Source: Bacteroidia bacterium
Lineage (GTDB): Bacteria > Bacteroidota > Bacteroidia > M30B66
Direction: 5' to 3'
NCBI GenBank assembly: GCA_965279035.1
Contig: OZ257142.1
Span: 2,944,001 to 3,008,000 of the forward strand
Length of the DNA: 64,000 nt
Made by a program: the position numbers and the translations under genes. A model generated the notes under the pieces. It saw only the letters and a list, made by a program, of their open reading frames with translations, did not search any database and had not been told where the DNA came from. Below, piece by piece: positions 6,588 to 38,345 of the stretch. Within the stretch, counting starts at the first letter, position 1. Every line of letters starts with the position of its first letter.

Positions 6588-6636
6588 TAGTAGCGGGGAC
6601 GGGAGTTGAACCCGTGACCTCAGGGTTATGAATCCT
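6588..6636 (-). repeat. att site: 49-bp duplicate of tRNA-Met 3' part
   Basis: Identical to 24424-24472 (TAGTAGCGGGGACGGG...TTATGAATCCT). Confidence 0.95.
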
Positions 6637-6689
6637 AAAATGTATGTCTTCAAACAAAAGTGGACTTTTACTTAGAGAGTATTTCATTA

Positions 6690-7706
6690 TCAAATCAAAA
6701 TTAGATTTAAATTTTGATTTTGTGATTTGAGTTTAGATTTTATCATCTCATATTCCATTCTTCTTGAGTTTAATGCTTCGTGTTTTAAGCGTTTTCTTTC
6801 TTTAAGGATTTGATCACCTCTTCCATAGTATATATCAGCAGGAGTTAGGTTTTGCAATGATTCATGATAACGTTGGTTATTGTAATTATCAACAAATTTT
6901 CCCAGGGCATCTTCAAGTTCTTCCGGACAATAATAGTGATTTAGCTTAACCACGTTTTTCATTGTACGATGATAACGTTCTATTTTACCTTGTGTTTGAG
7001 GATGAAAAGGCCTACCGTGTATTTGATCTATCTCATGGTTTTGCTTAAGGTAAGCACTGAGTTCCGCAGCAATATAACATGAACCATTATCCGATAATAG
7101 TTTGGGACGAGGCTTTGACAGTAATTTGGCCTTTTTAATGGCTCTATCAACGGTTCTTTTTACATCTTCAACTTTCATCCCAGAACAGAGTTCCCAATGC
7201 ACAATATATCGGCTGTAATCATCTAAGATGGTACTTAAATAATACCAGCCCCAACCAATGATTTTAAAGTAAGTAAAGTCTGTTTGCCACATTTGATGAA
7301 CAAATCCTGTTTTCTTAGAAAATTCATCGGCTGCTGAAATGAAAATATGGGCTGGTGAATTGATTAAGCCTCTCGATTTCAAAATACGATAAACGCTCGA
7401 TTCTGAAATGAAAATCTGTTGCTCATCAGTTAGCTTAAAAGCAAGTTCACGAGATGATAATTCAGGATAATTCAAAGCAAGATCTACTACAAGATTCTTT
7501 TGCTGTTGTGGAATACTATTCCATTGCCTTTTTAAAACCCGCTTGCTTGGATTTAAGCCATCAACGCCGTTGTCAGCATATGATTTATACCATTTGTAAA
7601 ATGTGCTCTTATTAAGCCCTATTTCACGTAAGGTGCGATTGACACCAATTTCAGATTGAACAACGAGATCGATGAGTTCCTGCTTTTCGGATGCTGTAAA
7701 ACGCAT
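6690..7706 (-). CDS. Transposase OrfB (rve DDE integrase core)
   Basis: WQTDFTY, LSDNG, PQTQGKIER; frame open back to the A-run slippery site in orfA (-1 frameshift). Confidence 0.93.
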   Translation of the reverse strand: MRFTASEKQELIDLVVQSEIGVNRTLREIGLNKSTFYKWYKSYADNGVDGLNPSKRVLKRQWNSIPQQQKNLVVDLALNYPELSSRELAFKLTDEQQIFISESSVYRILKSRGLINSPAHIFISAADEFSKKTGFVHQMWQTDFTYFKIIGWGWYYLSTILDDYSRYIVHWELCSGMKVEDVKRTVDRAIKKAKLLSKPRPKLLSDNGSCYIAAELSAYLKQNHEIDQIHGRPFHPQTQGKIERYHRTMKNVVKLNHYYCPEELEDALGKFVDNYNNQRYHESLQNLTPADIYYGRGDQILKERKRLKHEALNSRRMEYEMIKSKLKSQNQNLNLILI

Positions 7707-8162: not shown

Positions 8163-11100
8163 AGTAATAGAAGACGGAGTAATGTTTACAGGAACTATAG
8201 TACTATTATTACCAATGCTTCCTCTACTGTTAAATGTGTTAGGACTAACATTCCAAGTCCCAAATGCCCAATTGGCATTACAATCAGTAAAATCTGAAGG
8301 AGGTATAATCCAACATGCATATGTGCGTGATTCGCTAACATAAGGTGGATAGATTGTTCCATAATCATTAGAGTTTGATAAAACAGTCCATCCAGAAGTT
8401 GATCCACTAGTAGTTGATTGATTTACCCCTTGTTTATAATACCATCTATATTGGTAACCTTGAAGGCAATTACTTTCAATATAATCGCCTGGGACGTTCT
8501 CAAATGAGATCGATGATGAAGTTGTACCTGAACAATATTCAATATTTCCATTCCCAATTGATCCATAATCAACAATTTTATAATTGAGTAAAGTATTATT
8601 TAAAATTTTGTATCTATCACAATCATACACCCAATAAGCGTATACTCTAGATTTGAATAATAATGGAGGGTCAATATTTCCAACAACTCCAGTACTAATC
8701 CAATTTGAAATATCAATATTTCTAAGATCTACTTCAATACAATTATTATTATCAATTTGATCAAAATCCAAATAGCGCCATTCGCCATTAAGCCCATTAT
8801 TATTTATATAAATTGGGGTTGGATCGTAAGAACCACAATAATAGCCTGTGTCTGACGAGAATGAACCTGGAGGAAATGAACTCCCTGTATTTGCCCCAAT
8901 ATCTAAATATGAAAAATTATTATTGGATATTCCATAAACAAGCGGCAAATAACCTTCACACCCAATCTGACCAATAGTAATATAACCATCAGATGCATAT
9001 AAATTATATAAATTAAAGTGCCCATTAGGACTTCTGTTAATATAACCAGTTCTATTAGAAACTAGATTATCAATAGTTCCATCTCCAAATTGAATATTAT
9101 AGTTATAATAGTAGGCAATTTGATTTATGTCTATTGGTAAATCAAATTGAAATGATCCTGAATTGGAGGGTTCATAGCCACAACTTGGATTTATTATTGG
9201 GTTTAGAATTGAAATTTGATTCCCACTGGCTTTTATCTTTATCGTATTTCCACACCATCCACTAGGTAAACAATTTTGTGCAACATTTCTGCTAACATAA
9301 CATGCATAGGTCCTATCAGAATTAAAAATAGTTGTTGTTGCGCCCGAAGTTGAATCTAAATCACCATTTAGTGGCAACCATCCTGTAACATCATTTCCAA
9401 AAGGAACATCTTCTATTATCCCCTCTTTATAATACCATTGTATATTTATATTTGGATTTGCTCCAATAACATCTTGAAGTAACAAAGAGATTGAAATATC
9501 ATCTTGACCACAATAATTATAAACTCCGTTTCTTAAAAAAATATAATCTGAAGCAGGACTTGTATATGTATCTAATACTGCAGTACCTAAACTGTAATTT
9601 TCATTTAAAGTAATATTAGATAAATTGGGATTTCCAGTAATTGCTGGATTTGAAGAAACAACCCTAATTCTGTAACTAGAACCAATTTGAGAAGAAATAG
9701 GTATATTCGAAATTATAGGACTGGTTAAACCAATTCCAATATATGTTGGATTAGCAAATGAACCTAATGGATCTGATAATTGAGCTACAAAAGAGTTTCC
9801 AGATTGAAAAATACTAGTTGTTGAAAAAGGTATAGATACTTGATCTCCTATACAAAAACTTCCCAATGCTAGATTTGAAGTTGTAATTGTAGGATAATTT
9901 GAAACAATTACTGAAATAGATGCTTTAGGACTTTCGCATACGCCAACTGTTTGACTTACAAAATATTGAGTATTGCCAGCTATTAAAGTAGATGGAATTG
10001 GAGCATTTGTTAATGAATTACCCCCAACTAATTCATTATACCATTTTAAATTAGTACCAGTAGCAGACAATTGTGTACTAGTGTTTCCTAAATAATAGTT
10101 TTGTGTTGAAACAACAACAGGTGCGCTTGGTGCCAGAGTAGCACTTACATTCACAGTAATTTGGGTTCTTGGGCTTTCTGGACAGCCAATGGCAGTTTGA
10201 GATACCCAATAATTAAAAACACCAGATGAAACTGTACTAGGTATAGGAGTTGTTGTTGAAGAATTTCCCCCGGTTGATGTTGTGTACCATAAAAGACCTG
10301 TCCCAGATACATTTAAAGGTGATGAAGGTGAATTTCTGCAATATGAAATTGGGGATACAGCTGATGGAGCAACAGGTTGAGCGTTTACAATAATTTGATA
10401 TCCAATCCTTGAACTTTCACATCCAAATTCACTTGTTTGCGAAAGATAATATGTTTGAAAACCAACATTTGAACTATTGGGGGTTGGTGGTGTAGGTAAA
10501 GCATTTCCTCCTGATGAATTTGTGTACCACTTGATATTAGTTCCAATTGCTGTAAGTGCAGATGTACTAGCTCCTTGGCATATGTATAATGGTGTAGTTA
10601 TTATTGGAGAACTAGGAATTGGTTGAATTCTAACAGTAATTAAACTTCTATTACTTTCTATATTATTTTCTGTTTGAGAAACATAATATGTATAATTACC
10701 CTCAATACTTGTATTGGGTAATGGTGCTGTTAATGAGAAATTCCCTCCATTTTCTGATGTATACCATTTTAAGTTAGATCCAGTTGCATTTAATGTTGAT
10801 GATAAACTATTTTTACATAAGTCTATTGGTGAATTTACTACAGGTGAAGGTGGAATTGCAATTATAGTTTTACTTTTAGCTGAACTTCCTGAGGAATTCG
10901 TTACTGTTAGAGTTATCGTATAAGTTCCTGAAGATGTAAAACTAATTGTTGGATTTATACTAGAAGAACTTGACCCTGATTGGTAATTCCATCCTGTTGA
11001 AGGAGAAATAGTCCATAATCTAGTACTCGGAGAATTAAAGGAGTTGTCACTTATATTAATAAGTGTCCCTTGAATAACAGACACCTGATCATTAACATTT

Positions 11101-11924: not shown

Positions 11925-12015
11925 GGTAAAAGGGATTATTTTTATTTCTCGAGAAACAAAAATATACTTCAAACCATAATTAAAAAACTATCTCCACAGG
12001 TAGTAATTCGATAAC

Positions 12016-12756
12016 TTAAAGCCCTATGAAATTCTTACGCCCGAGTTTTTTAAGGATATTTTTCCTATGATAACGAACGCCAGATTCAGATATTAGTATT
12101 GATTTTGAAATTTGATTTATGCTTAGTCCTCGCTTAATTAAATCATATATTTCTTGTTCTTTTTCTGTAAACTTTAATAAATTATTCTTTATTAAATTTT
12201 CTGGTGCATGAATATACTTAACTTGGTCTCCATATGAAATAATGCAATCTATTGGATGATTTTCTTCAGAATCAATTAGTTGACTTAGAAACCCAAGATC
12301 AAACCATGTATTAGATTTATTACGAATTACTCTATTTGTTTGTAATACCCAAGTCCCTGATCCTGCATTATGTTTTAAGCGATAGTACATTCTTGTGATT
12401 ACTTTTTCTCTCTGAATTTCTGGTAATTTATTAACAAAATTTACTGTTTCATGTATTAGAAAAACTACCCTGTCTATATCTGAAATATGAATAAGATTTA
12501 GAAATACTTGAACCCCTCCTGTTAAAATATCATCTTTAGAAACTCCGAGGATTCTACAAATTGTATTACTCAAATAGGAATATGAACCATTTTGATAGTT
12601 ATAAATATATGCTCCATTGCCCATATTATCCATAAATTCTAATTGATTCTTATGCTCAATTAAAAATTCTTCAATATTCTTTGAATTGTAAATAAATTTA
12701 TTTAGACTCCTTTCTAAGGAATCAGAATTTATATTTGATTTATTTATTTTTTTCAT
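12016..12756 (-). CDS. PAS-domain LuxR-type transcriptional regulator
   Basis: PAS-like LIHISD...YYRLKH; C-terminal FTEKEQEI...GLS.NQIS...HRKNILKKLG. Confidence 0.85.
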   Translation of the reverse strand: MKKINKSNINSDSLERSLNKFIYNSKNIEEFLIEHKNQLEFMDNMGNGAYIYNYQNGSYSYLSNTICRILGVSKDDILTGGVQVFLNLIHISDIDRVVFLIHETVNFVNKLPEIQREKVITRMYYRLKHNAGSGTWVLQTNRVIRNKSNTWFDLGFLSQLIDSEENHPIDCIISYGDQVKYIHAPENLIKNNLLKFTEKEQEIYDLIKRGLSINQISKSILISESGVRYHRKNILKKLGRKNFIGL

Positions 12757-12857
12757 ATGAAATCATAACATATTACAAATGTGATTCAAAAACAAATATA
12801 ATAATCCTTTTTAATCCAAAAGATAAATTATTCTATATTAAACGTATTTTATAGCCT

Positions 12858-12979
12858 AATGTTCAGCATACACCTAAAGAGCCGAACGATACTAACAGAA
12901 TGCTTTAGATTAGACGAATAAAACAAAAATACTAAGCATCAAACTCCAGAAATGCTTAGATTTGTTCGTGTGTGCTGTT
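12858..12979 (-). repeat. attC-like cassette repeat R1 (most diverged)
   Basis: Shares core AATGCTTTAGATTAGACGAATA...CAAACTCC.GAAATGC and terminal inverted arms with R2-R7. Confidence 0.8.
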
Positions 12980-12994
12980 GTGCGACGTTATGTT

Positions 12995-13414
12995 TCAAAG
13001 TATATATCCAGGAATCAAACTGTCAATAACTGCATTTTTTGTTTGTAAAAAGAATATCTCACTTTCTGATTTAACCGTGTACCAATCTTCGGTTCCATAA
13101 TTTTCAAGTCTGAACTTCCTGTGTATTTCGTTTTTTAATGATAACGTTTTATCTCGACTTATAGCGGCTTCTTCATACTTACCTTGGTTTGCAAGTGATT
13201 CTATCTCACGGTTTGTGTCTTCCACATTCCATTCAGGAAATTTATTGGCTGTAAATGATGCCAATGTTTCTTCATAATTTACTTCATAAGAAAATCTAAA
13301 TCCGGCTTTTGAACAAAAATTAATAATCCCTGCCAATTGACTAATGCTCATATTTGCATTCTCTTTGGATAAGTTTCTTATTATTTCATTTAATTGTTTA
13401 GTCGAATTAATCAT
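12995..13414 (-). CDS. Hypothetical cassette protein with UVR-like motif
   Basis: Likely start MINSTK (the track's longer start lies inside repeat R2); ANQGKYEEAAISRDK resembles the uvrB/uvrC motif. Confidence 0.6.
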   Translation of the reverse strand: MINSTKQLNEIIRNLSKENANMSISQLAGIINFCSKAGFRFSYEVNYEETLASFTANKFPEWNVEDTNREIESLANQGKYEEAAISRDKTLSLKNEIHRKFRLENYGTEDWYTVKSESEIFFLQTKNAVIDSLIPGYIL

Positions 13415-13439
13415 TGTTTGCTTTTTTATAATGTACCAT

Positions 13440-13563
13440 AACGTTTCACACACACCTGCAGAGCCAAACTTGGTGAATGAAATGCTTTAGATTAGACGAA
13501 TATAACAAGAAAAACGAATGTATCAAACCTACGAAATGCATCGCTTTGCTGGTGAGTGCTGTT
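13440..13563 (-). repeat. attC-like cassette repeat R2
   Basis: AACGTTTCACACACACCTGCAGAGCC...GCTGGTGAGTGCTGTT, 124 bp. Confidence 0.88.
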
Positions 13564-13695
13564 ACAAGATGGTAGCATTAATGGTAATTGTAAATTTGTG
13601 AATCGAAATGTGTTTTATTTGACAATCAAATTCTAAGATTGCTTTCAATATAAAGTGAATCAAAATAAAATCGAAAAAGAGATTTACTAATAAAT

Positions 13696-14936
13696 TGTAG
13701 GCTCCCCATTTTTAGTACGGTTCTAAATTACAATTTATTATCATTGATTAACTCTTCTTGGCTGGAGTGAAGCGTAGCGGAACGGAGGCCAAGAAGAGTC
13801 TGATTTTTACGTTTATACATCACTGGACTTAAGCCACCCAAAGCATCATGTGGCCTTTCTTCATTGTAGTCTTGCATCCATGTTTCAGTGATGCTTCTTA
13901 CCTCATAGAGAGATTCAAAAATATAATTATCAAGGATTCCTCCTCTAAAGGTTTTATTAAATCTTTCTATCAATGCATTTTGTGTTGGCTTTCCAGGCTG
14001 TATGTAATGAAAGTCTATTTCTTTTATTTCACTCCATTCTTTCGAAAGCTTGGCGATAAATTCAGGTCCGTTATCCATTCGTATTTTTTTAGGTTTTCCA
14101 TGTTTATTGATTAGGTGGTTTAGCACCCAGATTACTCTGCTACTTTTTAATGAATAATCTGTTTCGATAAATAATACCTCACGATTGTAATCATCTATAA
14201 CATTAAAGGATCTGAACTTGCGACCATTGCTGAGAACGTCATGTACAAAATCAATACTCCAAGTATGGTTAAATTCACTTGGTATTACGATTTGTTCTTT
14301 TACTCTTGCTGGCAAACGCTTTTTTGCCTTGCGTCTTAATGGTAGACCCATTTGCTTATAAACCCTGTGGAGGCGTTTGTGGTTTACTTTGACACTCTTG
14401 TTGCGTAAACGATAATAACTCTTCCAAAAGCCTTCTCTGGGGTGTTCAATGCTTAGTTTACTTAAAGCATCATTTAAAAACGAATCATCCTTTTGGGAAC
14501 GATAGTTTAAACTACTCCTGCTTGTTTGTAAAATACGACACGCCTTGCTTATGCCATGAGGATAATGATGCTTGAGCTCTTCTACAATCGCTCTTTTGTG
14601 GCAAGGCTTTAAAGCTTTTTTTCGATTATATACTTTGCCATATCTAGCTCTAAAGCTAAATCTGTATACATGCGCTTTAACTTTGCATTTTCCTCTTCTA
14701 GCCGTTTTATATTCTTCAACTCACTAGCCTCCATGCCACCGTATCGTTGTCGCCACTTGTAAAAAGTAGCCTTCGATACTCCATGCTCTCTGCTAATTGT
14801 TTCAACATCTTTTCCTTGTTCAAACTCTTTAAGGATCTTTGCAATCTGCGTCGGGGTGAATCTTGTCTTTCTCATATTACAGTTTTAAAATTAGAAATTC
14901 TTTTTTCAAACTGTACTATTTTCGGGGGAGCTTACA
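13696..14936 (-). mobile_element. IS3 family element (IS407-like, 1241 bp)
   Basis: TIRs TGTAGGCTCCCC / GGGGAGCTTACA; 4-bp target duplication AAAT. Confidence 0.93.
13728..14875 (-). CDS. IS3 transposase OrfAB (programmed -1 frameshift)
   Basis: OrfA 14609-14875; GAAAAAAAG slippery site; -1 frame runs into [20 protein letters not shown]. Confidence 0.9.
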
Positions 14937-15480
14937 AAATCATTAAAACCAATATAAGTAAAAATCTAATATTGAACTTTTTCAATATTACATTGATTAT
15001 ATTTATAAGTTGTTTATATTAAAATTTGATTAGAGTTGTTGATTAACGTTATTTAGTGCAGCAAATGATCCAATTAATTCTTCGTTTTGATATCTGTCAT
15101 ATTTACTTGCACTCTTAATTATGGATACCTTAATTATAATTGAAAAAATTGAGTAAATAACCCATAAGACTGGATTTGTAATAAAAACATCACCAACGAG
15201 ACCTAAGCATAGGTCAAGATATATTATATCAAAAGAGAATGTTGCGAATAGAATTGAATCAAAGGCTATCGACATTGACCAGTATTTTTTTAGGAAAGAT
15301 AAAGAATATCCATAGTTTAAATCTTGCCTTAAATGCGACCATAAGTATGCCAACAGAGGATAAACATTTATTTGTGTAACTGGGTAATAATTTGAAAGTA
15401 TAATGTGATTATTTAAATTATGTATTTCCAACAATGTATTAAACTCATTAAAATTATTATGAGTGCTATATAGTTTGAAT

Positions 15481-16851
15481 CACACCCGTCCAAGACGTTT
15501 GTATAACGAAAATACAATCCTGATTTGATGCGAGATTACTCATCAAAGAACGCTCTTTTGAAAATTAAACCCTCTATAATTTAAAAAAGGGACATTTGTA
15601 ATTCCAGTTTATCAATTTCGTCATCATCTAAAAAGGGTTTATCAAGCCATTTTTTGAGGTCAATTTTCACAAAGAGATTTAATCGAATAAAGGACACCAA
15701 ATTTGAGAGGTGCCAAGAGTGTTTTGCTTCCTTTTGAAGTGTCTTTAAAAGCAGTATGGTGATTAGTGCTGTCCAAATCTGTATCAGAACAGCATTCATG
15801 CTGGTTCCTATGAAAGACTTGATTTTCAGGTGTGTTTTGATCTCCTTGAAGAACGATTCGATGCTCCATCTACGTTTATATAGTTCTGAAATGGTCGATG
15901 CTGTCCAAGAAAAATTGTTTGTAAGAAGTTCAAGATATATCTGTTGTTCTTCATCCCAGATCTGAACCATTCGGAGCTTTTGCGGGTATTTTTCTTTTGA
16001 TTGAGGTAAACTCAAAAAGCCTTTCCAGTCGTATTGCAAGTCTGGATTTGCTTCATCGGTTGGGCTCTTAGTTCGCTCATAAAGTTCAAACTGAATGTTT
16101 TCTTTTCCTCGAATAACAAAGAATACTCCTTGTTCATCTAATTTTCTCATCCAGTTAAAATCGACATATCCTCTATCAGCTACAACAATGCTTCCTGTGG
16201 GAAATTCAATATCATGTGCTGCATTTACATCGTGCTTTTTGCCATCACTCAAATCAGCAAAAACGGGCATACAGCCGTCAAAGTCAAGGACTGTGTGAAG
16301 TTTTATAGCTCCCTTCTTCTTTCGAAATAGTGCCCAGTCGAACACTTTAAGACAAAGGTCAATCGTGGTTGAATCGAGCAGATAGATTTTACGTTTGGGA
16401 AGCAGCTTTCGGCTTGTTTTTAAGGTTGATTCAAACTGCTCATACAAGTTAAAATACATCGCTTGAAACAGCTCCCAGTTGCGATGTTGGTTATTATATG
16501 CCAACGATGATCGCCTCATGGCTTTTGACACTCCCAGATGATTTAAATCGCCTGTTGCTGATCGCATTCCATTGCAAACGTCATTTAAGCTATTAGACTT
16601 GGAAAACTGGCAAAAAACCATTGTCACAAAGTGAGACCAAGCATCATTGCCTTTACAATGTTTATTGGACTCAAACTTTTCTACTAGTTTATTGAAAGAA
16701 TCTCGCTTAATTTTTTGGAATATCTGAGCAAATAATGTGATCTTCATGCCGGAGTTGGTTTATGTTTTTGTGTCGTAACTCAAACATACCGGATTTAATC
16801 CGGACCAACTCTATTTTTTTACCCTATTTTAAAACGTCTTGGACGGGTGTG
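15481..16851 (-). mobile_element. IS4 family element (1371 bp)
   Basis: Perfect 20-bp TIR CACACCCGTCCAAGACGTTT; 9-bp target duplication AGTTTGAAT. Confidence 0.95.
15581..16747 (-). CDS. IS4 family DDE transposase
   Basis: LLDSTTI, VADRGY, YKRRWSIESFFK (YREK) motifs. Confidence 0.95.
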   Translation of the reverse strand: MKITLFAQIFQKIKRDSFNKLVEKFESNKHCKGNDAWSHFVTMVFCQFSKSNSLNDVCNGMRSATGDLNHLGVSKAMRRSSLAYNNQHRNWELFQAMYFNLYEQFESTLKTSRKLLPKRKIYLLDSTTIDLCLKVFDWALFRKKKGAIKLHTVLDFDGCMPVFADLSDGKKHDVNAAHDIEFPTGSIVVADRGYVDFNWMRKLDEQGVFFVIRGKENIQFELYERTKSPTDEANPDLQYDWKGFLSLPQSKEKYPQKLRMVQIWDEEQQIYLELLTNNFSWTASTISELYKRRWSIESFFKEIKTHLKIKSFIGTSMNAVLIQIWTALITILLLKTLQKEAKHSWHLSNLVSFIRLNLFVKIDLKKWLDKPFLDDDEIDKLELQMSLF

Positions 16852-17245
16852 AGTTTGAATATATTAAATCTAGTAATCAATCTTCTTAAATTTCGACCAC
16901 ATGAGAAACAAATTATACCAATCAAATAACCAATTACAATGTGCACTAGTATCAAGGAATTATTAAAGAAATTAATAGAGAAGAGATTTCCATTTTGGAA
17001 ATACCAAAAGTATATGCCTGAAATAACAGCAATTCCTGCAAGTAAAATTGATAAATCTAAAATTTCAAAAAAATCAGCAACTTTTGAAAATATTATTTTA
17101 AGTATTGAAGTGAAATCGTTCATGATTATATTTAAAGGTTTTAAACTTAGTTTATGTAGTTTTAAAAATCTAAATTAAGTTAATTATTTCAATTGAGTAT
17201 TAATGCAAATGCTTATTGAAAAGACTAAAAGAGCCACTTTCTTGT

Positions 17246-17369
17246 TATGTTCCGCACACACCTGAAGAGCCAAACGAGGTGAACGAAATGCTTTAGATTA
17301 GACGAATATAACAAGAAAAACCGATGCCTCAAACTCCCGAAATGCCTGGTTTTTCTAATGTGTGCTATT
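17246..17369 (-). repeat. attC-like cassette repeat R3 (terminal triplets mutated)
   Basis: TATGTTCCGCACACACCTGAAGAGCC...ATGTGTGCTATT, 124 bp. Confidence 0.88.
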
Positions 17370-17456
17370 ACCAGCTAATCCGTTTTGTACTTAAAGAAAT
17401 AGTCATTGAATTATTTGATTTCAGGAAATTCTTTGTTTATGAATAACCGAGACATT

Positions 17457-18152
17457 TCATTCAATTTCAATTACGATTCCGCCAAAATGGCGTTCTGCAG
17501 CTTTGCATGGAATTCCATTTACATAACAAATGTTACTACTATATTCTCTTTCAACATTTTTGTATTTCCCTTTCAAGCCTTGCCCGAACATGCCATCATT
17601 AAAAAACTCAATTGGTTTTCCATTTTCATCTGTTGTTTTGTCTATACAGTCTTTACAGATTTGTTTTGGATATCGATGGCTAAACCCAGTTTTGTTTAGA
17701 CAAATTGGGCATAATTGATATTCATGATTTTCACTGATTAAATATTCATGAAGCAACATTTCCAAATTCTTTGAAACATTAGCCTGTGAATATTTTCCAG
17801 TTTCCTTCCAAACTTTGTCATTTTCAAGATTCAATACTTTGTAACATCTTTCTAGAACCGACTTATGATGGAATAAATACCAATTATCGCCATTGGGAAA
17901 AGCAACATATAAATTTTCGCTGTTACTATATTTTATATTTAGAGTAAACCTTGATTTTAATTGTACTTTGTAGGTGACGTCATCATATTTTCTATTTATC
18001 ATCAAAAAATCCGCACCATTCCAATCGTCATTTAATCGAATAGTTTCCAAGCCATAATCAGCTAGAATGCCTGAAAGTTTTTGGAAATTAAAGGATTCTT
18101 TCTGTTTTGGGCTAAGATCCTCGTATTCAATCTTTTTAAAATGCAGTTTCAT
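17457..18152 (-). CDS. Hypothetical cassette protein; PD-(D/E)XK-like N-terminus plus Cys-rich C-terminal domain
   Basis: GADF...KVQLKSR; CPIC...CKDC. Confidence 0.55.
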   Translation of the reverse strand: MKLHFKKIEYEDLSPKQKESFNFQKLSGILADYGLETIRLNDDWNGADFLMINRKYDDVTYKVQLKSRFTLNIKYSNSENLYVAFPNGDNWYLFHHKSVLERCYKVLNLENDKVWKETGKYSQANVSKNLEMLLHEYLISENHEYQLCPICLNKTGFSHRYPKQICKDCIDKTTDENGKPIEFFNDGMFGQGLKGKYKNVEREYSSNICYVNGIPCKAAERHFGGIVIEIE

Positions 18153-18278
18153 GTGTTTTAAGTTTGTTGTATGCTTATTAAATGTAAAAATAAACCATTT
18201 GCGTTTTTCAAACTCATCATGGTTACTCGCAGTAAAAAACGAATATGCTTAAGTCGACCGAGATCGCGGCTTTGCTGG

Positions 18279-18402
18279 AACGTTCCGCACACACCTGAAG
18301 AGCCAAATGAGATGAACGGAATGCTTTAGATTAGACGAATATAACAAGAAAAACGGATGCCTCAAACTCCCGAAATGCTTGGCTTTGCAGGTGTGTGCTG
18401 TT
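18279..18402 (-). repeat. attC-like cassette repeat R4 (best preserved)
   Basis: Arms GCACACACCTGAAGAGCCAA (18287-18306) and TTGGCTTTGCAGGTGTGTGC (18379-18398) complementary 18/20; AAC and GTT ends. Confidence 0.9.
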
Positions 18403-18439
18403 AGTGGTAGTTTACTATTTCGTTACTTGTAATATCGGT

Positions 18440-18862
18440 CTACTTCAATGCAAATTTAAATGGTAATGTCCACTCGGAACTAATGGTTCTTCTCTTATTG
18501 TCTTTAATTTCTATAGCTGGATTCCATTTAGGCATAATTGAAACAATTCTTAATGCTTCGTTGTCATATGGAGGACATATTCCTTTCAGAATTTTAGGGT
18601 TATTTATTTTTCCGGTTGTGTCTATTCTAAATGTTATAAATACAGTTCCATGCTCACAACCATCTGCGATAGGCCATTTAATATTACGTCTAATAAAAGC
18701 TATTAAGCTGTCTTCACCACATGGAAAACTTGGTGCTGGATTACTTATTAAAATAGTTTTTGTCGAATCAAGTAATTTGTCTTGCCTAGTCGCTTGAGCA
18801 TGACAAAGTGTCTGCAAACTTGAAAGCAAAATAAATGTCTGTATGATGATTGTCTGTTTCAT
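18440..18862 (-). CDS. TonB C-terminal domain protein (cassette gene)
   Basis: Likely start MKQTII; PSFP.G, GTVFITFRIDTTG, EALRIVSIMPKWNPA. Confidence 0.85.
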   Translation of the reverse strand: MKQTIIIQTFILLSSLQTLCHAQATRQDKLLDSTKTILISNPAPSFPCGEDSLIAFIRRNIKWPIADGCEHGTVFITFRIDTTGKINNPKILKGICPPYDNEALRIVSIMPKWNPAIEIKDNKRRTISSEWTLPFKFALK

Positions 18863-18929
18863 TAAATTACCACTAACCTTTAGACTTGCAGTCAAAGATT
18901 TTAGCTGATAAATTTACCATAAATAAATG

Positions 18930-19085
18930 TAGTTAACCGAAAGCAGGGCGACCTATGCGCTAACAAGGATAATAGGCCTATGGAACGATATAGTGCCCTA
19001 CTTTCTGGTTATTTAAGCCTCAGATAGATATTCGGGATTCAGGCCCATTATAAAGGTTTTGAGGTACAAATAACCATTGGTTAAT
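18930..19085 (+). ncRNA. Predicted IS110 bridge RNA
   Basis: Two stem-loops with internal loops: CGCTAAC and GGAACG match the target; ATAGATAT and TAAAGG match the donor junction; ends approximate. Confidence 0.7.
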
Positions 19086-19107
19086 CCGTTTTGCTAATTA
19101 TAAAATT

Positions 19108-20121
19108 ATGAATTCAAACCAGAACAACCAAAAACATTTTGTAGGAACAGATGTTTCAAAAGAAACACTTGATGTAACGATCTTTTTCAACTCCTCAATG
19201 CATTTTCATCAGCAATTTTCAAATGACAGCAAGGGCTTTAAGCAATTGCTGAAATGGCTAGAAACCTATCCTGAATTCAGTTTTGAAAATACTTTATTCT
19301 GCATGGAACATACAGGAATTTACACTCGTCAGTTTGTTGAATTCCTCCTTTCGAAAGAAGCAAAGGTATGGATGGAGTCGGCACTGCATTTAAAGCGTTC
19401 TATGGGCATGACAAGGGGCAAAAGTGATAAGATCGATTCACTGCGAATTGCACGCTATGCAATGACTCATCAGGACCAAGCCAGGCTCGTAAATCTTTCC
19501 AATAAAACATTGTTGCTTATCAAAGACCTTATGAGTGCAAGAGAGCGGAGTAAAAAGGCCTACCAGTCCATAAAAGTCTCCATTGATGAAATGCAAAGAG
19601 TCGATGCAGCAACAGCAAAAGAGCTCTTGAGGATTAATAAACCAGCCCTTTCTGGATTATTGAAAAGCAAGATGGCGTTGGAAAAACGGATGATGGAATT
19701 AATAGCGATGGATCCTGAACTGAACGAGCTATTTGAGCTGGTTACTTCTGTCAAAGGTGTGGGTAATGTATTGGCAACCGAACTGATTGTTTATACACAT
19801 GCATTTAAAAGAATGGATGAAGCCAAACAACTGGCCTGCTATTGCGGAGTCGCTCCTTTTTCTCATACTTCCGGCACGAGTGTGCATGGAAGAAATGGAA
19901 CTTCAAACTTTGCTAACATGGGACTTAAATCAACTTTACACTTGGCTGCACTTTCTTCAATTCGTTACGTACCTGAGCTTAAAACATATTATCAGAGGAA
20001 AGTAGCTGAGGGAAAATCCAAAATGAGCGTAATTAATGCCGTGCGGAATAAACTGTTGCAACGTGTCTTAGCAGTGGTAAAAAGAGGAACGCCTTACCAA
20101 GAAAATTATCAAGTAAATTAA
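19108..20121 (+). CDS. IS110 family recombinase (DEDD)
   Basis: VGTDVSK, CMEHTG, KSDKIDS, SVKGVG, YCGVAP...SGTS. Confidence 0.95.
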   Translation: MNSNQNNQKHFVGTDVSKETLDVTIFFNSSMHFHQQFSNDSKGFKQLLKWLETYPEFSFENTLFCMEHTGIYTRQFVEFLLSKEAKVWMESALHLKRSMGMTRGKSDKIDSLRIARYAMTHQDQARLVNLSNKTLLLIKDLMSARERSKKAYQSIKVSIDEMQRVDAATAKELLRINKPALSGLLKSKMALEKRMMELIAMDPELNELFELVTSVKGVGNVLATELIVYTHAFKRMDEAKQLACYCGVAPFSHTSGTSVHGRNGTSNFANMGLKSTLHLAALSSIRYVPELKTYYQRKVAEGKSKMSVINAVRNKLLQRVLAVVKRGTPYQENYQVN

Positions 20122-20142
20122 TTTGGAAAACTCATAGATATC

Positions 20143-20261
20143 GTTCCGCACACACCTGAAGAGCCAAACGAGGTGAACGAAATGCTTTAGATTAGATGAA
20201 TATAACAAGAAAAACGAATGCTTCAAACTCCCGAAATGCTTGGCTTTGCTAGTATGCCGTT
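20143..20261 (-). repeat. attC-like cassette repeat R5 (its AAC displaced to 18875-18877 by IS110)
   Basis: GTTCCGCACACACCTGAAGAGCC...GTATGCCGTT. Confidence 0.88.
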
Positions 20262-20889
20262 AGCGGTTGCTATCGTCCCAAAAGCCAATATCAATTAGAA
20301 CCCTACTTTCAAACTCAAATTGAGTTAACTTAATTTTATCTACCGTCAATTCTTTACGAATAGGATCGTAATACATTCCTTTAATTCCAACTTTACATGC
20401 TAAAAATTGATCAGCTAAAAAATCACCTACTTTTGTATTTCCTCCATTAATATCTTCTGAAGCAAAATATCCGTTTGGCCCGCAAGTCAAAATAAAGTTT
20501 CCATTCTTTGCATATTTATCCATTTTCTTTTTTTGAACAATTAACCCACTGTTATTTCCTACTTTCTTAGCCTGGAAAATAATGGATTTCGTGGTTTTAA
20601 TATTTGTGTCTTTATCCTCAATATCTAAGGATATAATAGAGTCCGCTCCAATTCGTTTTTCTTCAGCGCCTGGTCCTCTGCCTTGAAATTTCTTATAGTA
20701 AATTATCCAATAATAAGTTTTGCTGTCAATTTTCATAGTTTTCTTTTCTGACCTAAGATTTCCTAAATAATCTCCAACTACTGAATCTTCTTCTGCATTT
20801 GAATAATCCCATCCCTTTTCGCCTCTTCTCGAACGTTTCTTTATGTGATTTTTTATAATGTCTAATAATTCTTGTGGAAGTTCATGCAT
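20260..20889 (-). CDS. Hypothetical cassette protein, possible PD-(D/E)XK nuclease fold
   Basis: EKRIGAD...IIFQAKK; stop codon TAA lies in the CTAAC end of the repeat, as is common in integron cassettes. Confidence 0.6.
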   Translation of the reverse strand: MHELPQELLDIIKNHIKKRSRRGEKGWDYSNAEEDSVVGDYLGNLRSEKKTMKIDSKTYYWIIYYKKFQGRGPGAEEKRIGADSIISLDIEDKDTNIKTTKSIIFQAKKVGNNSGLIVQKKKMDKYAKNGNFILTCGPNGYFASEDINGGNTKVGDFLADQFLACKVGIKGMYYDPIRKELTVDKIKLTQFEFESRVLIDIGFWDDSNR

Positions 20890-20918
20890 AAGATAATGAT
20901 TTTAAAATGGTTACCGTT

Positions 20919-21042
20919 AACGTTCCGCACACACCTGAAGAGCCAAATGAGATGAACGGAATGATTTAGATTAGACGAATATAACAAGAAAAACGGATGC
21001 CTCAAACTCCAGAAATGCATGGCTTTGCTGGTATGTGCTGTT
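20919..21042 (-). repeat. attC-like cassette repeat R6
   Basis: AACGTTCCGCACACACCTGAAGAGCC...GGTATGTGCTGTT, 124 bp. Confidence 0.9.
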
Positions 21043-21105
21043 ATTCTGTGGAGCGCTTAATCGAAAAGATAATCGAACTTTACTACAAACTAATTAAAAA
21101 GAAAC

Positions 21106-22551
21106 CTAATCAGTATTCCAAAGCCATTCAGGATGATCTTTAGTCATTTCTCTAAGTTCATCTCGCCCAAACTCTTCTGCAGATTTCCAATAATTATTTA
21201 GATTATTATTTTTTTCTCTTAACTTTTCTTGATCAATTTCTTTGCACACGCGATCTCTATATTCAAGATATTTATTACCATATTTAATAAAAAGTGAACT
21301 TTGGCTAGATATTATATCCATAGTCATTTGAGAAATATCAAAATCGAAATTATTATCATTAATTGTCAAATCCCATAGTCTGTTTCCAAGCATACGATGA
21401 ATATTGCATTCATCTTCATAAAACAAATCAGATGTTACAGTATTATCAATTAATCTCATCTGATATTTTAAAAACTTCAGAAGGAAAATTGGATGCAATT
21501 GGCCAATTGAGTATAATTCACAAAAATTAGCAGTAAAAGGTGTTACTGGACTAAAACCTCGAATAAAATGAATAAATTCAAATTCTTGATAAATACTAAA
21601 TAATTGGTCATCAATTATATCATTTCCAAAAATATTTTTACAACCATATTTTTGCGGATTATCGTTTGTCAAATAATAATAATTACCATTCAATAAAGAA
21701 GTTAAGCCAGATAATGTATTTTCTAAAAGTGGTTTGTTATTCTGATCAATAAAATTCCACCTCAATTCATATCTATAATATTTAGTAGCATTTGAAGTAT
21801 TTCTTCTATAATTACTTATTGCAACAGCTGCATAACCTTCTGAAAAAGATCTGGCGTCATCATAAATTGCAGGAATTACAAATTGTCCGGTCTTATTAAT
21901 AAATCCAAATAACCCATTAATTTTCACTTTAGCTAATCCATTTATATGTGAACAAGCATATTCAAATTGCTGATTTATGACAAAATCTTGTAACTTATTA
22001 TTTTTGAAACTCTCTTCTGAAATATATCCCCATAATTTATTAAAGTGTTTTACTCCAACTAATTGATCTATTGGTAATGTAATATCTTCAACAAATGAAA
22101 ATGAATATTCTTCGTTCGTTAAATTTAAAATGAGAATACCTGATGAAATATCTTTGTAGGATTCAAAATAGGTACTGTATTTCTTAAAATCATTACTTAA
22201 TAAATTGAACAACATATTAGGATTCACTGAAACAATTATCATTTCATTGAAAAAGTAATTTTTCAGAAAAAACTTATTTTGAGGAACTATAGTTTTGAAA
22301 ATTGTCTTAAAAAAACTCCATTCTTTTTGATTATCTTCTCTAAAAATGGATGATCGACCTTCTCTATCGATGATATTCCAACCTTCTGAAGTATATACAA
22401 ATGCATGTTCAAAATTCAGAGGCTTCGCATATCTATAATATCCTATATCATCGTCCTCAATTTTATAAAAATATGGCTCATCTTCATTATGTTTAGTATG
22501 AGTCAATATTGGACCAATCAATTTACTTTGAGTTTCATTCATAAAAATCAA
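21106..22551 (-). CDS. WG repeat-containing protein (cassette gene)
   Basis: LWGYI, GLAKVKINGLFGFINKTGQFVIP, FSEGYAAV, WNFID. Confidence 0.8.
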   Translation of the reverse strand: MIFMNETQSKLIGPILTHTKHNEDEPYFYKIEDDDIGYYRYAKPLNFEHAFVYTSEGWNIIDREGRSSIFREDNQKEWSFFKTIFKTIVPQNKFFLKNYFFNEMIIVSVNPNMLFNLLSNDFKKYSTYFESYKDISSGILILNLTNEEYSFSFVEDITLPIDQLVGVKHFNKLWGYISEESFKNNKLQDFVINQQFEYACSHINGLAKVKINGLFGFINKTGQFVIPAIYDDARSFSEGYAAVAISNYRRNTSNATKYYRYELRWNFIDQNNKPLLENTLSGLTSLLNGNYYYLTNDNPQKYGCKNIFGNDIIDDQLFSIYQEFEFIHFIRGFSPVTPFTANFCELYSIGQLHPIFLLKFLKYQMRLIDNTVTSDLFYEDECNIHRMLGNRLWDLTINDNNFDFDISQMTMDIISSQSSLFIKYGNKYLEYRDRVCKEIDQEKLREKNNNLNNYWKSAEEFGRDELREMTKDHPEWLWNTD

Positions 22552-23486: not shown

Positions 23487-23774
23487 TTAGAATTGGATTT
23501 TATTCTTAATCAGAAACTCATTGATGCTATTGCGTGAGTACAATATTTTTCTTCCGAATTGGGTGAACTTGATCTCACCATTGTCCCGAATCTTCTGCCA
23601 TGAGGTTTTGGACTTGAACGGAAGCAATTTCTTAGCCTCTGAAAGTGGAATCCAGTCACTCTGATAGCTTTGGGCCTTTTCAATTAGCAATTCTGCCACT
23701 GCCTCTTTCACATAACCTTTAATCTCTCGTTTCAGAGCTTCAAATACTGCTGAATCGAATGTGATTAATTCCAT
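23487..23774 (-). CDS. Excisionase-like HTH DNA-binding protein
   Basis: DWIPLSEAKKLL...WQKIRDNGEIKFTQFGRKILY, typical Bacteroidota HTH_17 protein next to an att site. Confidence 0.85.
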   Translation of the reverse strand: MELITFDSAVFEALKREIKGYVKEAVAELLIEKAQSYQSDWIPLSEAKKLLPFKSKTSWQKIRDNGEIKFTQFGRKILYSRNSINEFLIKNKIQF

Positions 23775-24421: not shown

Positions 24422-24426
24422 CGTAG

Positions 24427-24500
24427 TAGCGGGGACGGGAGTTGAACCCGTGACCTCAGGGTTATGAATCCTGCGCTCTAACCATCTGAGCTACCCCGCC
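24427..24500 (-). tRNA. tRNA-Met (CAT), probably elongator
   Basis: GGCGGGGTAGCTCAGATGGTTAGAGCGCAGGATTCATAACCCTGAGGTCACGGGTTCAACTCCCGTCCCCGCTA cloverleaf; TATATTTG -7 box at 24512-24519. Confidence 0.95.
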
Positions 24501-38225: not shown

Positions 38226-38345
38226 AACAGCACACACCATCAAAGCCAAGCATTTCGGGAGTTTGAGGTATTCGTTTTACTTGTTATTTTCGTCTAATCT
38301 AAAGCATTCCATTCACCTCATTTGGCTATTATAGTGTGGAATGAC
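38226..38345 (+). repeat. attC-like repeat R7, solo and opposite in orientation to the array
   Basis: AACAGCACACACC...CATTTCGGGAGTTTGAGG...CGTCTAATCTAAAGCATT...TTTGGC is the reverse complement of R1-R6; distal end degenerate. Confidence 0.85.

Follow-up and report, generated by a model that had tools for sequence, protein, structure and literature searches.

A probable integron-like cassette array with long-stem sites in a Bacteroidia genome

The stretch of DNA analysed here (the window) comprises 64 kb of a Bacteroidia bacterium genome, in which six repeats of approximately 121 nt follow one another on the + strand at 12861–21042 and five gene cassettes lie between them, with the ORFs of all five on the minus strand (Table 1). 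A 20-nt word of the repeat, with up to 3 mismatches allowed, has 7 matches in the window against 0.03 expected; six of these seven copies are on the + strand and one, decayed, is on the − strand. Of the window copies, 6/7 retain GTT at their right edge, and 4/6 repeats retain AAC at the left edge, the latter count taking the arm before the IS110-family element as the left flank of repeat a4. Repeat a0, the most diverged copy of the array, has AAT rather than AAC on its left flank. No Rfam family matches the repeat. The ORF of cassette 4 carries a TonB_C domain, and Pfam searches gave no match for the ORFs of cassettes 1 and 5 and no significant family for that of cassette 3. No recombinase gene or remnant was found anywhere in the 64-kb window.

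Three insertion sequences interrupt the array. The IS3-family element has imperfect terminal inverted repeats (read by eye), and the IS4-type element has perfect ones of 17 bp and a 9-bp target duplication (15472–15480 and 16852–16860). At a related locus (L004), 147 nt from the end of the same IS110-family element (98.6% identity) lie against another repeat, again at the point used in the window. Such a fixed insertion point, with AAC on one side and the repeat on the other, recalls the IS1111-attC group of the IS110 family, which differs from the element here in host phylum and site family. An island of 17.8 kb, delimited by direct repeats (49 nt) of a tRNA-Met 3′ end, contains the window array.

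Table 1. Repeats, cassettes and insertion sequences in the window
Feature	Position	Strand	Remarks
Repeat a0	12861-12979	+	Putative constant middle of an attC-like hairpin; left end of array
Cassette 1	12977-13442	-	Arms 12977-12991 and 13428-13442; ORF 12995-13453 as listed
Repeat a1	13443-13563	+	
Cassette 2	13561-17248	-	Arms 13561-13575 and 17234-17248; body split by two insertion sequences; ORF pieces 15030-15434 and 16824-17123
IS3-family element	13696-14936	-	Inside cassette 2; HTH_Tnp_1 ORF 14609-14875, rve ORF 13728-14351
IS4-type element	15481-16851	-	DDE_Tnp_1 transposase 15581-16747; splits the cassette-2 gene
Repeat a2	17249-17369	+	Outer-stem position 1 is A/T, not G/C, on both flanks
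Cassette 3	17367-18281	-	Arms 17367-17382 and 18267-18281 (one gap); ORF 17457-18152
Repeat a3	18282-18402	+	Predicted 20-bp stem; unpaired: 5 nt left, 1 right
Cassette 4	18400-18877	-	Arms 18400-18414 and 18863-18877 (best pair); ORF 18440-18862
IS110-family element	18878-20142	+	Transposase 19108-20121; exactly between the cassette-4 arm AAC and repeat a4
Repeat a4	20143-20261	+	Right half of stem with 2-nt deletion
Cassette 5	20259-20921	-	Arms 20259-20273 and 20907-20921; ORF 20260-20889
Repeat a5	20922-21042	+	Right end of array
Solitary repeat copy	38226-38344	-	Partly decayed; outside the array, opposite orientation

The original prediction proposed that the start of each cassette is complementary to its own end, and the five pairs of arms are present where it had placed them, with 10/14, 10/15, one gap, 12/13 and 11/15 for cassettes 1–5. 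Counted over arm positions 4–16, which leave out GTT/AAC, the ungapped identities of the cognate pairs are 8, 10, 3, 11 and 8, the value of 3 belonging to the pair that needs a gap (cassette 3). The other 31 combinations of arms have 0–6 identities, and arms around one same repeat have 1–6 (the left arm of a0 was taken at 12864 in this matrix and at 12860 elsewhere, which touches non-cognate cells only). No partner was found for the right arm of repeat a5. With gap-tolerant anchored scores that again exclude GTT/AAC, the cognate pairs reach 4, 7, 6, 10 and 4, a sum of 31 that the true ordering alone attains among 120 orderings, and the 44 orderings in which no arm meets its own partner give a maximum sum of 15. 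With GTT/AAC left out, the duplex energies of the cognate pairs add up to −37.2 compared with a permutation mean of −25.3, and 2/120 orderings are as low as the cognate one. In folds of the whole site, cognate arms add −6.6 kcal/mol (n = 30) and other arm pairs −3.1 (n = 186). Individually, cassettes 1 and 5 score only 4, a value of at least which is also found in 20/190 comparisons with foreign arms. The cognate pairing thus outscores shuffled pairing with the shared GTT excluded, and the condition set for refuting the original prediction does not hold. Two further parts of the prediction are supported: that each pair of arms makes up one stem, whole only in the circularised cassette, and that the pairing, with an outer stem of approximately 15 bp, is longer than a 7-bp R box. 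No circle junction was found in the reads, and run X19, which probably stems from the source organism, has no clean excision joint.

The same or structurally equal repeats occur among toxin-antitoxin cassettes in Flavobacteriales/Bacteroidia assemblies. We compared the five window cassettes with 38 cassettes from ten Flavobacteriales loci (43 in total), the repeats of which were chosen by a filter demanding AAC, GTT and a paired stem, so that these features are partly present by construction. The median cognate arm score is 8 (n = 43) compared with 1 for 1806 non-cognate pairs, and a score of at least 8 is reached by 29/43 cognate and 5/1806 non-cognate pairs. Scores of 2 or less are found in 6/43 cognate pairs, one of which was traced to a repeat missed by the filter. 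Among the 33/43 cassettes that align in register, stem positions 1–9 are Watson-Crick paired in 31–33, whereas the fraction for non-cognate pairing at positions 5–7 and 9 is only 0.40–0.47. Position 11 is G·T in 28/33, with T as the left base in 33/33, and the flipped arrangement (right A, left C) is found in 0/33. Positions 12–15 are paired in 28 to 32 of the 33, G·T counted, and position 16 in 7/33; the outer stem thus ends at 15 bp. From the outside in, the predicted site consists of 5 unpaired nt (GTTCC type), one half of a stem of approximately 20 bp, a large terminal loop, the other half and 1 unpaired nt, and the predicted folds have no single-base bulges in the stem beside this 5:1 loop. 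Repeat length is nearly constant (121–122 nt in 37/55), and repeats that are unrelated in sequence have one common geometry and junction motif. In three pairs of unrelated cassettes both arms are nearly identical (13–15/15 nt) and neither flanking repeat is related, hence the arms are not unique tags.

Ten related arrays, L017 and L019 among them, sit directly downstream of an Xer/IntI-like tyrosine recombinase. Where the recombinase is 63–77% identical to the first one, 8/8 retrieved loci carry a downstream array in one fixed orientation, and at 20 loci with more distant homologues (40–54% identity) a repeat within 1.5 kb was found in 0/20. The recombinase has all catalytic residues and scores 227.3 bits on NF040815 (XerA; cut-off 220) and 203.9 bits on TIGR02249, in two stretches and below the cut-off of 265; the XerC and XerD models score it far below their own cut-offs. 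Its best matches among solved structures and profiles are XerA-type proteins, aligned continuously along the whole catalytic core, and 16 profile positions face 58 residues of the solved integron integrase 2a3v. Judged by these alignments, the recombinase is devoid of the IntI-specific additional domain; it has an additional N-terminal stretch of approximately 80–90 residues. Among the matches listed, 7587 of 8000 scored candidates have E ≤ 1e-80, and the source names of the candidates are “site-specific tyrosine recombinase/integron integrase” or “XerD”. Its place at the heads of arrays argues for a role other than Xer/dif dimer resolution. In 9/10 arrays the recombinase-adjacent cassette ends ...AAC and is followed by approximately 100 nt of non-repeat, attI-like sequence up to the recombinase stop codon, and the longest ORF runs in the direction of the recombinase in 36/41 cassettes.

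We regard 12861–21042 as probably the cassette array of a Flavobacteriales integron-like system with long-stem sites, exchange between AA and C (AA↓C) and, in relatives, an Xer/IntI-like platform. Each repeat of approximately 121 nt would form the constant central part of a hairpin site for recombination, and the 15 nt to the left and to the right of a gene would each supply one half of the outer (R-like) stem in the site of that gene. In the array the gene would separate these halves; in the excised circle they would flank one repeat and close the hairpin. The platform, seen in relatives only, would consist of the recombinase, approximately 100 nt of attI-like sequence and then cassettes with genes in the same direction. 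The + strand, antisense to the genes, would be the folded recombining strand, with exchange at the left edge of the repeat, and the role of the extrahelical bases in classical attC, which the extra domain of IntI reads, may here fall to the stem length, the position-11 G·T and the 5:1 loop. This reading accounts for the repeats of the window, for the order of its genes and for its three insertion sequences.

The original prediction had placed the crossover at the + strand GTT, which is probably the wrong side. Insertion at + strand G↓TT cannot yield the AAC/attI-like end of the 9/10 related arrays, in which the recombinase-adjacent cassette has no repeat on its right. The G·T wobble, which turns into a C·A mismatch when the opposite strand folds, makes the + strand fold better, and by analogy with other tyrosine recombinases the 5′ arm of a folded + strand would be cut at AA↓C. 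Together with the ORF direction in 36/41 cassettes, these points make it likely that exchange falls at AA↓C of the + strand, which reads G↓TT on the coding strand; the gene would then travel with the left-hand repeat in window coordinates and not with the right-hand one. The same integron-like array with exchange at + strand G↓TT, the gene moving with its right-hand repeat and lying antisense to the top strand of the site (as it would in 36/41 cassettes), is unlikely but has specific points in its favour. In run X3, one contig has both arms and the body of cassette 4 (18397–18877, 13 differences) beside a different repeat on the left, which tells against the AA↓C side, where the left repeat is expected to move with the gene; homogenisation of repeats within the genome could account for this contig, although that is an excuse and not a result. 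One pair of paralogous cassettes, with 71% identity between the bodies, has right-hand repeats at 77% identity, near the value for the bodies, and left-hand repeats at 92%, a level also found among several unrelated copies of the array that holds this pair. GTT is also kept more often than AAC in the window, and the extra unpaired nucleotides belong to the 5′ arm of the + strand, as they do in the classical attC top strand.

The arms are inverted repeats on both sides of each gene, their sequences recur with unrelated genes, and Bacteroidota are known for invertible segments worked by tyrosine recombinases, so gene-specific inversion of the inverton or shufflon type, with the repeats as fixed spacers, has to be weighed. 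It would sit poorly with the longest ORF running in one direction in 36/41 cassettes, with the 0/33 count for a flipped position 11 and with the finding of no strand-changing joint among the joints listed for four read runs, and it leaves the conserved repeat hairpin and the recombinase-anchored arrays with their attI-like junction unexplained; we consider it very improbable. The repeat is multi-copy, with word depths of 3139.9–5584.4 in run X19 compared with 179.8 for unique sequence (approximately 17–31 times), and it is also present singly, as would suit a MITE- or REP-like element inserted into intergenic palindromes such as terminators, with the arms as leftovers. Such insertion predicts pairing of the arms around one same repeat, which the arm matrix contradicts, since their identities are only 1–6/13 compared with 8–11 for the four ungapped pairs across genes. 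Since repeats of unrelated sequence have one geometry and junction motif, and arrays begin at a recombinase, this origin is scarcely credible.

The preferred reading, an integron-like array, shares several features with the integrons of class 1 and of Vibrio chromosomes: tandem promoterless genes, imperfect palindromes bounded by AAC...GTT, an outer stem that is whole only in the circular cassette, repeats that resemble each other within one chromosomal array and, in relatives, toxin-antitoxin cassettes and arrays headed by a tyrosine recombinase, to which an attI-like junction connects them. In the standard integron model the start of a cassette belongs to the R box of its own attC, and an outer stem rebuilt in the circle is, as a principle, integron logic and not new. 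Integron recombination uses the folded bottom strand and cuts between A and C of AAC, for which the + strand G·T wobble and the layout of the arrays give indirect support here. The departures from textbook integrons are the stem length, the 5:1 loop and the type of recombinase. Passages of PMC5027507 and PMC2727003 give classical attC a 7-bp R box, compared with the 15-bp outer stem and fixed position-11 G·T here; those of PMC5027507 also describe extrahelical bases and an unpaired spacer of 5–6 nt in each arm, whereas the sites here are predicted to have 5 nt against 1 nt and no single extrahelical bases. Other differences are the nearly fixed repeat length and the apparent absence of the IntI-specific insertion from the recombinase of relatives. 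Integrons with a reverse-oriented integrase (Treponema and others) are similar in that recombinase and cassette genes are co-directional and the array starts just past the recombinase stop; their integrases are described as having the IntI domain, unlike the recombinase here. The XerA-type best matches recall Xer recombinases (XerA, XerC/XerD) at dif, and the 10–11 well-paired outer-stem positions have about the length of an Xer binding arm; the additional N-terminal residues, the place at the head of cassette arrays and sites that are long hairpins set the system apart from Xer and its dif site, a 28-bp duplex. Six sites in a row with no recombinase gene in the window also resemble, in layout, a CALIN (cluster of attC sites lacking an integron integrase), a class that IntegronFinder assigns from two or more hits of its attC covariance model with no integrase close by.

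Passages of two preprints, on IntegronFinder 2.0 and on archaeal integrons, describe integrons as rare or absent in Bacteroidetes and integron searches as using an integrase profile built on the IntI-specific domain. For Flavobacteriales, those on IntegronFinder 2.0 mention no arrays of this kind; for Bacteroidetes, they list nothing beyond In0 and a single complete integron of Salinibacter ruber. More tentatively, the arrays may represent a separate branch of cassette capture in Flavobacteriales, possibly in Bacteroidota more widely, in which an Xer-like recombinase without the IntI domain acts on folded single-stranded sites. Recognition might then proceed via the 15-bp cassette-specific stem, the fixed G·T and the 5:1 loop instead of extrahelical bases, and the branch might either preserve a stage that preceded the gain of the special IntI domain or have arrived at the integron principle independently. 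Should the arrays be active, cassette platforms have been overlooked in large number. Hairpin sites that are apparently used without the IntI domain would test what single-strand recombination needs, and engineering would gain from them a second set of structure-specific sites with a different code.

Between the six repeats a0–a5 (about 121 nt each) lie five gene-carrying cassettes, numbered 1–5, with ends of about 15 nt that we call the left and right arms. With up to 3 mismatches allowed, a 20-nt repeat word matches seven times in the window, where 0.03 matches are expected. The repeats start with a GTTCC-type pentamer, end in ...GCT GTT and are predicted to form a roughly 20-bp stem with a large terminal region and unpaired bases that number five on the left and one on the right. 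Each inter-repeat segment carries a minus-strand ORF, one of them with a TonB_C domain and the others without a clear family. Rfam gave no family at E ≤ 1 for positions 12000–22000.

Features of the cassette array, its surroundings and related loci (window coordinates unless a locus is named)
Feature	Coordinates	Strand	Remark
Repeat a0	12861-12979	+	~121-nt repeat family
Repeat a1	13443-13563	+	~121-nt repeat family
Repeat a2	17249-17369	+	~121-nt repeat family
Repeat a3	18282-18402	+	~121-nt repeat family
Repeat a4	20143-20261	+	~121-nt repeat family
Repeat a5	20922-21042	+	~121-nt repeat family
Seventh copy a6, partly decayed	38226-38344	-	opposite orientation; right half intact, left stem half decayed; outside island
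Position 11 in window cassettes	12987/13432, 13571/17238, 18410/18867, 20269/20911		right-arm G / left-arm T wobble site
IS3-type element	13696-14936		inside cassette 2
IS4-type element	15481-16851		inside cassette 2; 17-bp perfect inverted repeats, 9-bp target duplication (with duplications 15472-16860)
IS110-family element	18878-20142		exactly between cassette-4 arm AAC and repeat a4
Perfect 49-nt direct repeat	6588-6636 and 24424-24472		copy of tRNA-Met 3' part
tRNA-Met	24426-24500	-	
HTH_17 (excisionase-like) ORF	23487-23774		inside 17.8-kb segment
attI-like stretch, last cassette to recombinase stop	L051 ~3914-4010; L052 ~9926-10026; L054 ~6589-6690		

The start of each cassette is complementary to its own end, and all five arm pairs were recovered exactly as the original prediction had placed and counted them. 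The advantage of cognate over shuffled pairs persists when the shared GTT/AAC is excluded: ungapped identities at positions 4–16 are 8, 10, 3, 11 and 8 for the cognate pairs (the 3 belonging to the pair that requires one gap), compared with 0–6 for the 31 other combinations and 1–6 for arms flanking one repeat. A gap-tolerant anchored score gives 4, 7, 6, 10 and 4 for cassettes 1–5, and the sum of 31 is reached by the true order alone among 120, with orders lacking any true pair scoring at most 15. By duplex energy without GTT/AAC, 2 of 120 orders are as low as the true one, and when reconstituted sites are folded the cognate arms add -6.6 kcal/mol versus -3.1 for other arm pairs. Cassettes 1 and 5 give a modest signal within the window, since 20 of 190 foreign-arm comparisons also reach their score of 4.

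By an exact-pattern scan, the repeat is present in eight contigs from Flavobacteriales/Bacteroidia assemblies, in which neighbouring repeats differ in sequence, are equal in geometry and enclose small genes, including ParDE, PIN and HigB-like pairs. From these loci and the recombinase loci described below we drew a strict set of 55 repeats, six of them from the window, for which AAC, a G(G/T)T-type pentamer, a paired stem and GTT were required, so that these features are partly present by construction. The set defines 43 cassettes with repeats on both sides (5 from the window and 38 from ten loci) and leaves out one cassette with Ns (locus L056) and one decayed site with an unclear left boundary (locus L003). 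Loose structure scans gave about 2 false matches per 10 kb per strand in shuffled sequence. Relaxing the filter in a second version cut true cassettes apart (57 "cassettes", of which 41 score at least 6), and we therefore report the strict set. The median arm score is 8 for the 43 cognate pairs versus 1 for 1806 non-cognate pairs, with scores of at least 8 in 29 of the former and 5 of the latter. For six cognate pairs the score does not exceed 2, in one case because the filter missed a repeat.

Thirty-three of the 43 cassettes align in register, and their outer stem has a fixed architecture. Positions 1–9 are Watson-Crick paired in 31–33 of the 33 with bases that vary among cassettes, compared with a non-cognate pairing rate of 0.40–0.47 at positions 5–7 and 9. 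Position 10 comprises 22 Watson-Crick pairs, 4 G·T pairs and 7 mismatches. At position 11 all 33 have a left-arm T, which in 28 faces a right-arm G as a G·T wobble, often with a mismatch at position 10 before it and four more pairs after it. Positions 12–15 are paired in 28 to 32 of the 33 (G·T counted) and position 16 in 7, so the stem ends at 15 bp; the predicted pairing of 13–16 bp is real and corresponds to this defined length. The + strand folds better, since the other strand has a C·A mismatch in place of the wobble. In three cassette pairs (L050/L055, L052/L057 and L056/L057) both arms are nearly identical (13–15 of 15 nt), with unrelated bodies and neither flanking repeat related; hence the arms are not unique labels and, judged by their sequences, seem to fall into recurring types.

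At the related locus L017 the gene of a 361-aa tyrosine recombinase has its stop codon about 100 nt from the end of the array, an arrangement also seen at L019. A search of 201 same-order genomes with this recombinase gave 54 homologues at E ≤ 1e-60. Downstream DNA of eight close homologues (63–77% identity) carries repeat arrays in every case, in constant orientation relative to the recombinase gene; no repeat lies within 1.5 kb in 20 loci of more distant homologues, or near the 44%-identical homologue at L018. The recombinase has SAM-like and catalytic domains with invariant columns that include the catalytic Arg, His-x-x-Arg, His and Tyr. It scores 227.3 bits (cut-off 220) on the XerA model NF040815, named by NCBI "site-specific tyrosine recombinase/integron integrase". 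Its match to the integron-integrase model TIGR02249 falls into two stretches and scores 203.9 bits against a cut-off of 265. Its profile aligns unbroken to XerA structures but in two blocks to the Vibrio integron integrase structure 2a3v, where 16 profile positions stand opposite 58 residues, and thus it lacks the IntI-specific insertion, which PMC4792948 and other papers treat as defining for integron integrases. The wider family is large, with E ≤ 1e-80 for 7587 of the 8000 candidates scored; members are mostly 347 aa long and named XerD or "site-specific tyrosine recombinase/integron integrase". By eye, the attI-like stretch before the recombinase stop codon contains inverted repeats of about 16–18 bp and a motif present twice. 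In the window itself, Pfam scans of 30 ORFs (29 from the window) detected no recombinase, and tblastn with a related recombinase detected neither a recombinase nor a remnant (best E 4.1).

The anatomy of arms, repeats and genes follows integron logic, and we consider it probable that this is an integron-like cassette array with exchange at the left repeat edge, between AA and C on the + strand (G|TT on the coding strand). In a circular cassette, left arm, repeat and right arm would make up one complete hairpin site; on insertion, recombination inside the outer stem would part the arms and leave them at opposite ends of one gene, and each gene would travel with its left-hand repeat in window coordinates. 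The original prediction that the hairpin is complete only in the circle agrees with this site anatomy, whereas its placement of the crossover at the + strand GTT, the right repeat edge, is disfavoured by the junctions, the gene direction and the folding strand. In 9 of 10 arrays a partner arm can be recognised for the recombinase-proximal cassette (9–14 of 15 identities), and in those nine AAC closes the arm, with non-repeat sequence immediately after it; in the tenth array, the best arm match pointed to a further repeat missed by the filter. Exchange at AA|C is favoured because this recombinase-proximal junction has an AAC arm but no repeat, because the genes are co-directional with the recombinase (longest ORF, 36 of 41 cassettes) and because the + strand is the better-folding one. 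By analogy with other tyrosine recombinases, cleavage of the + strand would fall in its 5' arm, beside the spacer. Both flanks of repeat a2 have A/T at stem position 1, a single case that fits exchange after this position on either side. Counting against the reading are the window's want of a recombinase or remnant, the failure to see an excision junction, the recurrence of arms among unrelated cassettes and the contig described next.

Exchange at the + strand GTT, which we regard as unlikely, would explain a 515-nt contig from sequencing run X3, in which the cassette-4 body with both arms (18397–18877, 13 differences) follows the end of another, differing repeat. Exchange at AA|C predicts the gene's own repeat on the left, although homogenisation of repeats within the genome could reconcile the two. 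BLAST among the 43 cassette bodies gave one paralogous pair, with flanking repeats indecisive on the crossover side. The outermost arms (a0 left, a5 right and both of a6) have partner matches not above those of random 15-mers (for a6, a best match of 12/15, equalled or exceeded by 43 of 200), which leaves the side unsettled at the array ends. No excision junction was seen in reads or contigs, run X19, likely the source organism, included; of runs X1–X3 only the covered parts of the stretch are informative. Cassette 1 DNA had no match in 401 genomes of the order, and a metagenome scan with the cassette-4 protein gave 9 loci at 31–44% identity, too distant to be of use. Five "skip" joints in X19 have short sides of 23–34 letters, separated by unknown letters; further copies of the repeat and of the IS110 element are their most likely source, and they were rejected as excision events. 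It is unlikely that each gene inverts between its arms: 36 of 41 cassettes share one orientation, none of 33 shows position 11 in its flipped state, and the joints listed include no strand-changing one. A small mobile repeat that split intergenic palindromes is highly improbable, since arms flanking one repeat should then pair with each other, and no such pairing was found.

Over 17200–18950 the summed word depth in X19 is 3139.9–5584.4 across the repeat versus 179.8 in unique cassette DNA, about 17–31 times higher; the genome should therefore hold more than the window's seven sites, and probably some 17–31 copies of the family. The IS4-type element divides the cassette-2 gene into ORF pieces (15030–15434 and 16824–17123), and the IS110-family element seems to target these repeat sites. 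A 147-nt stretch from the end of the IS110-family element, with 98.6% identity, likewise adjoins a different repeat in the same position at locus L004 (481–626). In X19 the contig of this element begins at 18874, at a depth of about 12 times that of unique parts. The whole array lies in a 17.8-kb segment enclosed by the 49-nt direct repeats and, because these copy the 3' part of tRNA-Met, is bounded like an integrated island. The segment also carries an IS3-type transposase pair, a 1275-aa Ig/PKD-repeat protein and a LuxR/PAS regulator, and looks like an integrated island without an integrase of its own.

In the standard integron model, the first bases of a cassette belong to the R box of its own site, and complementarity of a cassette's start to its own end is thus already known as a principle. 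For classical attC sites, the 7-bp length of the R box is a figure quoted from passages of PMC5027507 and PMC2727003. In0 elements, plus a single complete integron in Salinibacter ruber, are all that passages of the IntegronFinder 2.0 preprint report for Bacteroidetes, and the literature searched contained no description of such arrays in Flavobacteriales. Because the defining feature of the integrase was looked for and is absent, the arrays are not strict members of the integron family. We infer that recognition of strand and site, which IntI owes to extrahelical bases and its extra domain, is provided here by the long stem, the 5:1 loop and the wobble. The principle is known, but the 15-bp stem with its fixed wobble, the asymmetric spacer and the near-constant repeat length set these sites apart from described attC sites, as the recombinase without the IntI domain sets the system apart from described integrons.
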